Positions 15,603 to 16,774 of a stretch of 64,000 nt of DNA are shown here, one piece after another; the stretch's first letter is position 1, and the number at the start of each line of letters is the position of its first letter. The notes beneath the pieces are model-generated. The model was not told the DNA's origin and did not search any database. It was given only the letters and a program-made list of their open reading frames with translations. The DNA lies in the NCBI RefSeq assembly GCF_030013205.1, contig NZ_CP122648.1; one strand, 5' to 3'. The position numbers and the translations under genes were made by a program. The DNA is from Escherichia coli. Lineage in GTDB: Bacteria > Pseudomonadota > Gammaproteobacteria > Enterobacterales > Enterobacteriaceae.

Positions 15603-16774
15603 ATGCGTCTGTTTTCTATTCCTCCACCCACGCTACTGGCGGGGTTTCTGGCGGTATTAATTGGCTACGCCAGTTCAGCGGCAATAATCTGGCAAGCAGC
15701 GATTGTCGCCGGAGCCACCACTGCACAAATCTCTGGCTGGATGACGGCGCTGGGGCTGGCAATGGGCGTCAGTACGCTGACTCTGACATTATGGTATCGC
15801 GTACCTGTTCTCACCGCATGGTCAACGCCTGGCGCGGCTTTGTTGGTCACCGGATTACACGGACTAACACTTAACGAAGCCATCGGCGTTTTATTGTCAC
15901 CAACGCGTTAATAGTCCTCTGCGGCATAACGGGACTCTTTGCTCGTCTGATGCGCATTATTCCGCACTCGCTTGCGGCGGCAATGCTTGCCGGGATTTTA
16001 TTACGCTTTGGTTTACAGGCGTTTGCCAGTCTGGATGGTCAATCTACGTTGTGTGGAAGTATGTTGCTGGCATGGCTGTCAGCCAAGGCCGTTGCGCCGC
16101 GCTATGCGGTAATTGCCGCGATGATTATTGGGGTCGTGATCGTTATCGCGCAAGGTGACGTTGTCACAACTGATGTTGTCTTTAAACCCGTTCTCCCCAC
16201 TTATATTAGCCCTGATTTTTCGTTTGCTCACAGCCTGAGCGTTGCACTCCCCCTTTTTCTGGTGACGATGGCATCGCAAAACGCACCGGGTATCGCAGCA
16301 ATGAAAGCCGCCGGATATTCAGCTCCTGTTTCGCCATTAATTGTATTTACTGGATTGCTGGCACTGGTTTTTTCCCCTTTCGGCGTTTATTCCGTCGGTA
16401 TTGCGGCAATCACCGCGGCTATTTGCCAAAGCCCGGAAGCGCATCCGGATAAAGATCAACGTTGGCTGGCCGCTGCCGTTGCAGGCATTTTCTATTTGCT
16501 CGCAGGTCTGTTTGGTAGTGCCATTACCGGGATGATGGCTGCCCTGCCCGTAAGTTGGATCCAGATGCTGGCAGGTCTGGCGCTGTTGAGTACCATTGGC
16601 GGCAGTTTGTATCAGGCGCTGCATAATGAGCGTGAGCGCGACGCGGCGGTGGTGGCATTTCTGGTAACGGCAAGTGGATTGACGCTGTTCGGGATTGGTT
16701 CTGCGTTCTGGGGATTAATTGCCGGAGGCGTTTGTTACGTGGTGTTGAATTTAATCGCTCACAGAAACCGATAA
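15603..16774 (+). pseudogene. ydcO: BenE-family benzoate transporter homolog, interrupted by a -1 frameshift in a T-run near 15889-15892
   Basis: Track ORFs 15546..15911 and 15950..16774 are consecutive parts of one membrane protein in different frames; the second frame reads through the junction as ...IVTNALIVLCGITGLFARLMRIIPHSL...; one extra T would restore a 390 aa ORF. Confidence 0.6.

Follow-up and report, generated by a model that had tools for sequence, protein, structure and literature searches.

In the stretch of Escherichia coli DNA analysed here (64,000 nucleotides, hereafter called the window), the gene ydcO is, with a probability that we put at about 93%, a true frameshift pseudogene that originated from the loss of a single T and was inherited clonally. 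The frameshift as such is already known, as PGAP flags ydcO in public annotation; in the four genomes whose annotation was examined, the gene carries the label "BenE family transporter YdcO, frameshifted". The sequence-only reading had left open whether a real pseudogenisation or a sequencing error was involved, and the distribution of the lesion, the sequencing platforms and linked single nucleotide polymorphisms (SNPs) settle this question in favour of a real and clonally inherited mutation.

The ydcO locus and the break in its reading frame

Two consecutive open reading frames (ORFs) had been listed mechanically, 15546..15911 (121 amino acids, GTG start) and 15950..16774 (274 amino acids), and had been interpreted as parts of one membrane protein. 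When one T was inserted after position 15892, a 1173-nt ORF encoding 390 amino acids was obtained, just as had been predicted for one extra T in the run, and the repaired translation matched the BenE profile PF03594 in a single stretch (positions 3-378 of 378; 536 bits, cut-off 27) and the NCBIfam model TIGR00843 with 693 bits (cut-off 203). As encoded, the BenE match is split into an N-terminal and a C-terminal piece. According to the RefSeq annotation of identical and related genomes, ydcO is located between sutR and ydcL, as elsewhere in E. coli, and the order rlhA-sutR / ydcO / ydcL-tehB-tehA corresponds to the usual E. coli layout. As judged from the sequence, both ORFs are the halves of one BenE-family gene, ydcO, extending from the ATG at 15603 to the stop codon ending at 16774. 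The features of the locus are as follows.

14975..15511, minus strand: sutR (ydcN), intact divergent regulator, from the annotation; a 91-bp intergenic region is common to sutR and ydcO.
15603..16774, plus strand: ydcO pseudogene (BenE-family transporter), 1172 nt compared to 1173 nt in the intact gene; assigned from the PGAP label and the PF03594/TIGR00843 match of the repaired translation.
15603..15911, plus strand: N-terminal remnant ORF of 102 amino acids, covering BenE profile positions 3-95; exact protein on 110 public contigs.
15889..15892, plus strand: T4 homopolymer, from which 1 bp was deleted; intact alleles have T5 here (codons Val95-Phe96, GTT TTT), as seen in the alignment with ETEC1738 and CFSAN018748.
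15909..15911, plus strand: premature TAA in the shifted frame, following six out-of-frame codons past the deletion (LLSPTR*).
15950..16774, plus strand: C-terminal remnant ORF of 274 amino acids from the internal Met117, covering BenE profile positions 114-378; exact protein on 105 public contigs.
16781..16800, no strand assigned: GC-rich hairpin GCGCCATC-nnnn-GATGGCGC, a likely terminator between the convergent ydcO and ydcL, scored on the minus strand.

The junction reads GCCATCGGCG-TTTT-ATTGTCACCAACGCGTTAA, that is GGCG-TTTT-ATTGTC around the T run. In agreement with what had been noted from the letters, the upstream frame stops at 15909 and the downstream frame is open straight over the junction, where it encodes FIVTNALIVLCGITGLFARLMRIIPHSL; across the gap it reads RRFIVTNALIVLCGITGLFARLMRIIPHSL. 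The cause proposed at that time, a 1-bp deletion in the T run, also stood up to comparison with other E. coli ydcO alleles: in the closest intact alleles the run is TTTTT, and when CFSAN018748 and ETEC1738, both with an intact allele, were aligned, a gap of one base became visible. One detail had to be corrected. The GTG at 15546 is simply the first start codon that a mechanical listing gives for the upstream ORF, and PGAP uses ATG 15603 in identical genomes; with ATG 15603 as the real start, the N-terminal product comprises 102 and not 121 amino acids. It consists of 95 native residues and LLSPTR, the frame being lost after Val95. No gene on the same strand follows 3' of ydcO before the hairpin and, given this hairpin and the convergent ydcL behind it, a polar effect on other genes is therefore not expected.

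Fate of the YdcO product

Translation from ATG 15603 would lose the frame after Val95 and terminate six codons later, so that the 102-amino-acid fragment would correspond to roughly the N-terminal quarter of a membrane transporter with multiple helices. The other three quarters would have no ribosome-binding site of their own, and the transporter is most likely non-functional; this loss of transport activity is deduced from the truncation. In a crude hydropathy profile, the frame breaks where a strongly hydrophobic segment (residues ~96-114) begins. The ATG at 15950 (Met117) lies 38 nt past the premature stop, and no purine-rich Shine-Dalgarno sequence was found within the 15 nt 5' of it, for which reason independent translation of the C-terminal ORF was considered and rejected. 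Nevertheless, translation may be reinitiated at Met117 at a low level, or the ribosome or RNA polymerase may slip spontaneously.

If both products were made, the 102-amino-acid and the 274-amino-acid proteins might assemble into a working two-piece transporter, and ydcO would then be a functional split gene. Some membrane transporters do tolerate being split, and both ORFs are open in 16 of the 17 complete genomes that share the T4 allele (see below). However, the T4 clone is young (0-1 substitutions per 20 kb), and ORFs are therefore expected to stay open even without selection. Such a two-piece protein would also lack twenty residues (96-116), including most of the hydrophobic segment, and its C-terminal part would have to be initiated at an ATG that is unfavourable in sequence context and position. 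Furthermore, in strain ETEC1701, a second frameshift hits precisely this C-terminal part: a T6 run at window positions 16368-16373, downstream of the shared T4, is reduced to T5. The second deletion could be a further decay in keeping with a lack of constraint, or an assembly error in that record. Finally, a two-gene layout was absent from every other lineage examined; among homologues, an intact single-gene ydcO is the usual form and other truncated versions end differently, which speaks against a genuine shorter two-gene arrangement in homologues. Taken together, we consider a functional split gene very improbable and retain the pseudogene reading.

Distribution and origin of the deletion

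The window is closely related to sequenced porcine strains. The chromosome of ETEC4079, isolated from a pig in Belgium, matches positions 1-16000 in one unbroken alignment with 100% identity, and the Korean strain K_EC180 matches positions 12568-64000 with 99.998% identity. When a 1501-bp query around ydcO was employed, it was 100% identical in 16 complete genomes and 99.9% identical in a 17th one, which has one further indel. A 70-nt probe with the T4 run, at an identity of at least 99%, retrieved the same 17 among 5,260 complete E. coli genomes. All of them are from pig or wild boar; the origins that were checked are Korea, Belgium and France, and Japan is also given. The next match to the T4 probe was CFSAN018748, which differs solely by the extra T, and the corresponding T5 probe, which matched 5,275 genomes, aligned without a gap in each of 30 rows taken at even intervals from the whole ranked list. 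Beyond complete genomes, the contigs counted above for the exact 102- and 274-amino-acid products include Logan assemblies of individual sequencing runs, for example ERR4317649.

These data bear directly on the possibility that one base of a true T5 run was missed through a homopolymer miscall. Indels in homopolymers are the commonest long-read error, and singleton cases are found in these very assemblies (A5 versus A6 in ydcF of K_EC180; T5 versus T6 in ydcO of ETEC1701). Against such an error, T4 recurs in 17 complete genomes, originating from four countries, and on more than 100 other public contigs, including the assemblies of individual runs, and it is absent from the other complete genomes listed or sampled. 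Three of the T4 genomes have published hybrid assemblies corrected with Illumina reads: K_EC180 was assembled from PacBio RS II reads with Pilon correction using Illumina reads (PMC8071739), and the O139:H1 ST1 strains W13-16 and P15-25 are Unicycler assemblies of PacBio and Illumina reads (PMC8798679). Also, systematic miscalling would be unexpected in so short a run, with only four or five bases, and T4 is linked to two derived flanking SNPs (see below). As T4 is restricted to one lineage and independent of the platform, a platform artefact cannot explain it. A sequencing or assembly error is thus extremely improbable, and the 17 genomes, the hybrid assemblies, the more than 100 contigs and the co-segregating SNPs show that the missing T is a true, inherited change that did not arise in assembly.

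In order to polarise the deletion, T5 relatives were compared with T4 carriers over ~20 kb in six sequences, with CFSAN018748 and ETEC1738 as outgroups. The exact repaired 390-amino-acid sequence exists intact on 47 public contigs, and three of these T5 contigs, retrieved with 10-kb flanks, showed, apart from the T, 5-8 substitutions relative to the window in ~19.6-19.9 kb. At window position 12279, the T4 carriers (window and ERR4317649) have T, while the three T5 contigs and both outgroups have C. The same pattern holds at position 25067, with T in the window, ERR4317649 and K_EC180 and C in the three T5 contigs and both outgroups; K_EC180, which is without the region around 12279, could be scored at 25067 only. 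At position 20047, the derived T is shared by the T4 group and one T5 contig, its closest T5 relative. T4 carriers differ among themselves by only 0-1 substitutions per 20 kb. Since the derived SNPs at 12279 and 25067 are confined to T4 and that at 20047 is shared with one T5 contig, a nested tree results, which implies a single deletion event. By this SNP pattern, T5 is ancestral and the deletion occurred a single time, in the stem lineage of the T4 clade, followed by vertical inheritance. The loss of one T from the T5 run, for which replication slippage is the probable mechanism, took place in the ancestry of a porcine E. coli clone to which O139:H1 ST1 edema-disease strains belong, and the deletion has been passed on vertically since then.

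Two further observations on the ydcO sequence were followed up. An exact 76-nt stretch at residues 157-161 is private to the 17 T4 genomes, and the amino acid differences there had been considered as decay after inactivation; this was rejected, above all because intact copies of this very protein allele exist. The stretch also lies in a part of ydcO that varies greatly among E. coli, and versions with one mismatch occur in genomes annotated with ydcO. Occurrence of the same deletion elsewhere was also considered, as one cluster member of 102 amino acids includes Shigella sonnei sequences; this was rejected too, as that protein ends in frame (...GVFIVTNA) and represents a different truncation. 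Among the cluster members examined, the ending ...GVLLSPTR is found only in the product of this clone.

Some full-length YdcO might be restored if ribosomes underwent a programmed -1 frameshift or if transcription slipped on the T run. The shift does occur within the U-rich GUU UUA UUG, and some bacterial genes are expressed in such a manner. However, at GGC GUU UUA UUG there is no slippery heptamer of the type X XXY YYZ, just four U, and known transcriptional slippage needs runs much longer than four T. For the 80 nt downstream of the shift, a minimum free energy (MFE) of -15.4 kcal/mol was calculated compared to a mean of -16.5 for shuffled sequences (z = 0.36), and this RNA is thus no more structured than its shuffled versions; an Rfam scan of window positions 12000-20000 gave no family match. 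Genuine recoding sites are conserved across species, whereas the shifted layout is limited to one clone, of which one member even has a second frameshift downstream. The probability of programmed recoding is therefore practically nil.

Similarly, that the T run toggles between T4 and T5 and makes ydcO a phase-variable contingency locus is hardly conceivable: T4 and T5 versions of the same protein allele are both found in public data, but known phase-variable tracts are far longer than four or five bases, 17 of 17 clone members have T4, and the T4/T5 state tracks the flanking SNPs with no variation within the clone.

Significance of the loss and other features of the window

The inherited pseudogene described here corresponds to the E. 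coli K-12 gene for YdcO (b1433; BenE family, TC 2.A.46, putative benzoate/H+ symporter), which occupies the same sutR (ydcN)-ydcL locus; compared with K-12 YdcO, the copy in the window is one base short and its product ends after 102 amino acids. K-12 also has an insertion element beside ydcO, which is missing from the copy here. In the literature searched, no demonstration of the substrate of E. coli YdcO was found, and a sequence search for a solved structure of a YdcO relative gave none. An in vitro genomic SELEX study (PMC5934670) gives the ydcO/ydcN spacer among the targets of SutR (YdcN), and SutR is described as a sulfur utilisation regulator (Yamamoto et al. 2015, as cited in PMC8464067).

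Inactivation of ydcO is not confined to this clone. In heat-evolved laboratory E. coli, ydcO is frameshifted at codon 256 of 391 (PMC10044804), at another position than the T4 deletion, and the protein collection contains many shortened YdcO proteins of E. coli and Shigella sonnei that are broken at other positions and end differently. The gene appears to be dispensable and to have been lost repeatedly by different routes. Lineage-specific frameshift pseudogenes of host-adapted E. coli and Shigella clones likewise combine a homopolymer indel, an early stop and fixation in one pathogenic clone with intact relatives; compared to that class, the ydcO case has no distinguishing feature and is one ordinary example. 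It adds a further entry to the genes that a host-restricted E. coli clone has lost, an ordinary finding of little weight, and the loss was presumably without selective consequence.

As YdcO belongs by name to a benzoate/H+ symporter family, its loss might also be read as adaptive, not neutral, in a pig-specialised pathogen. Benzoic acid is given to weaned pigs specifically against diarrhoeagenic E. coli (e.g. PMC11439879). If this reading were true, abolishing an importer could cut benzoate accumulation and favour the clone in benzoic-acid-fed pigs, and the finding would be of applied interest only if the loss proved adaptive under such feeding. Benzoic acid also enters cells passively, and independent losses of ydcO were not seen in other pig lineages. 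With the family name as its basis, an adaptive loss is highly doubtful.

In practical terms, the porcine lineage can be recognised by a simple marker, T4 in combination with the SNPs at 12279 and 25067, and position 20047 could serve too. The locus also exemplifies how a real homopolymer frameshift differs from an artefact, the real one being clone-wide and linked to flanking SNPs, while the singleton indels in ydcF of K_EC180 and ydcO of ETEC1701 are each found in one genome and may be errors.

Other damaged genes are encountered in the same window, namely a truncated TonB-dependent receptor gene, a ydcV remnant and a frameshifted ynbD. The start of the window adjoins the TonB-dependent receptor gene (pqqU in relatives), which is without its N-terminus and is annotated at 119-1399 in ETEC4079. 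Window positions 1-132 give a 99.2% match to sequence beside an IS91-family transposase gene in K_EC180, the resemblance covering the first ~121 bases. In place of window positions 1-12567, K_EC180 has IS91-family transposase genes and a truncated narZ, and this region has therefore been rearranged differently among clone members.

The remnant of the ABC-transporter permease gene ydcV (window 6807-6929) shows a deletion of ~673 bp compared to close relatives, and this part of the window aligned as a single piece only in ETEC4079 and ETEC4069. ERR4317649 combines T4 with an intact permease gene, which dates the ydcV deletion to after the ydcO frameshift. The 64 kb contain a second pseudogene, ynbD (PAP2/dual-specificity phosphatase family; window ~37735-39026, minus strand), which has no single open frame and is annotated as "frameshifted" in K_EC180. 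In contrast, ydcF (minus strand) is intact in the window with A6 at 32469-32474, whereas K_EC180 has A5 and an annotated frameshift. This A6/A5 difference is the only one between the window and K_EC180 over 51.4 kb, and the A5 of K_EC180, a singleton homopolymer indel, may be an assembly error.

In the Danish pig isolate CFSAN018748, an IS200C-type transposase gene is located just 3' of the intact ydcO and before ydcL. The insertion element of K-12 occupies the same spot, and the ydcO-ydcL spacer seems to attract IS200/IS605-family elements.
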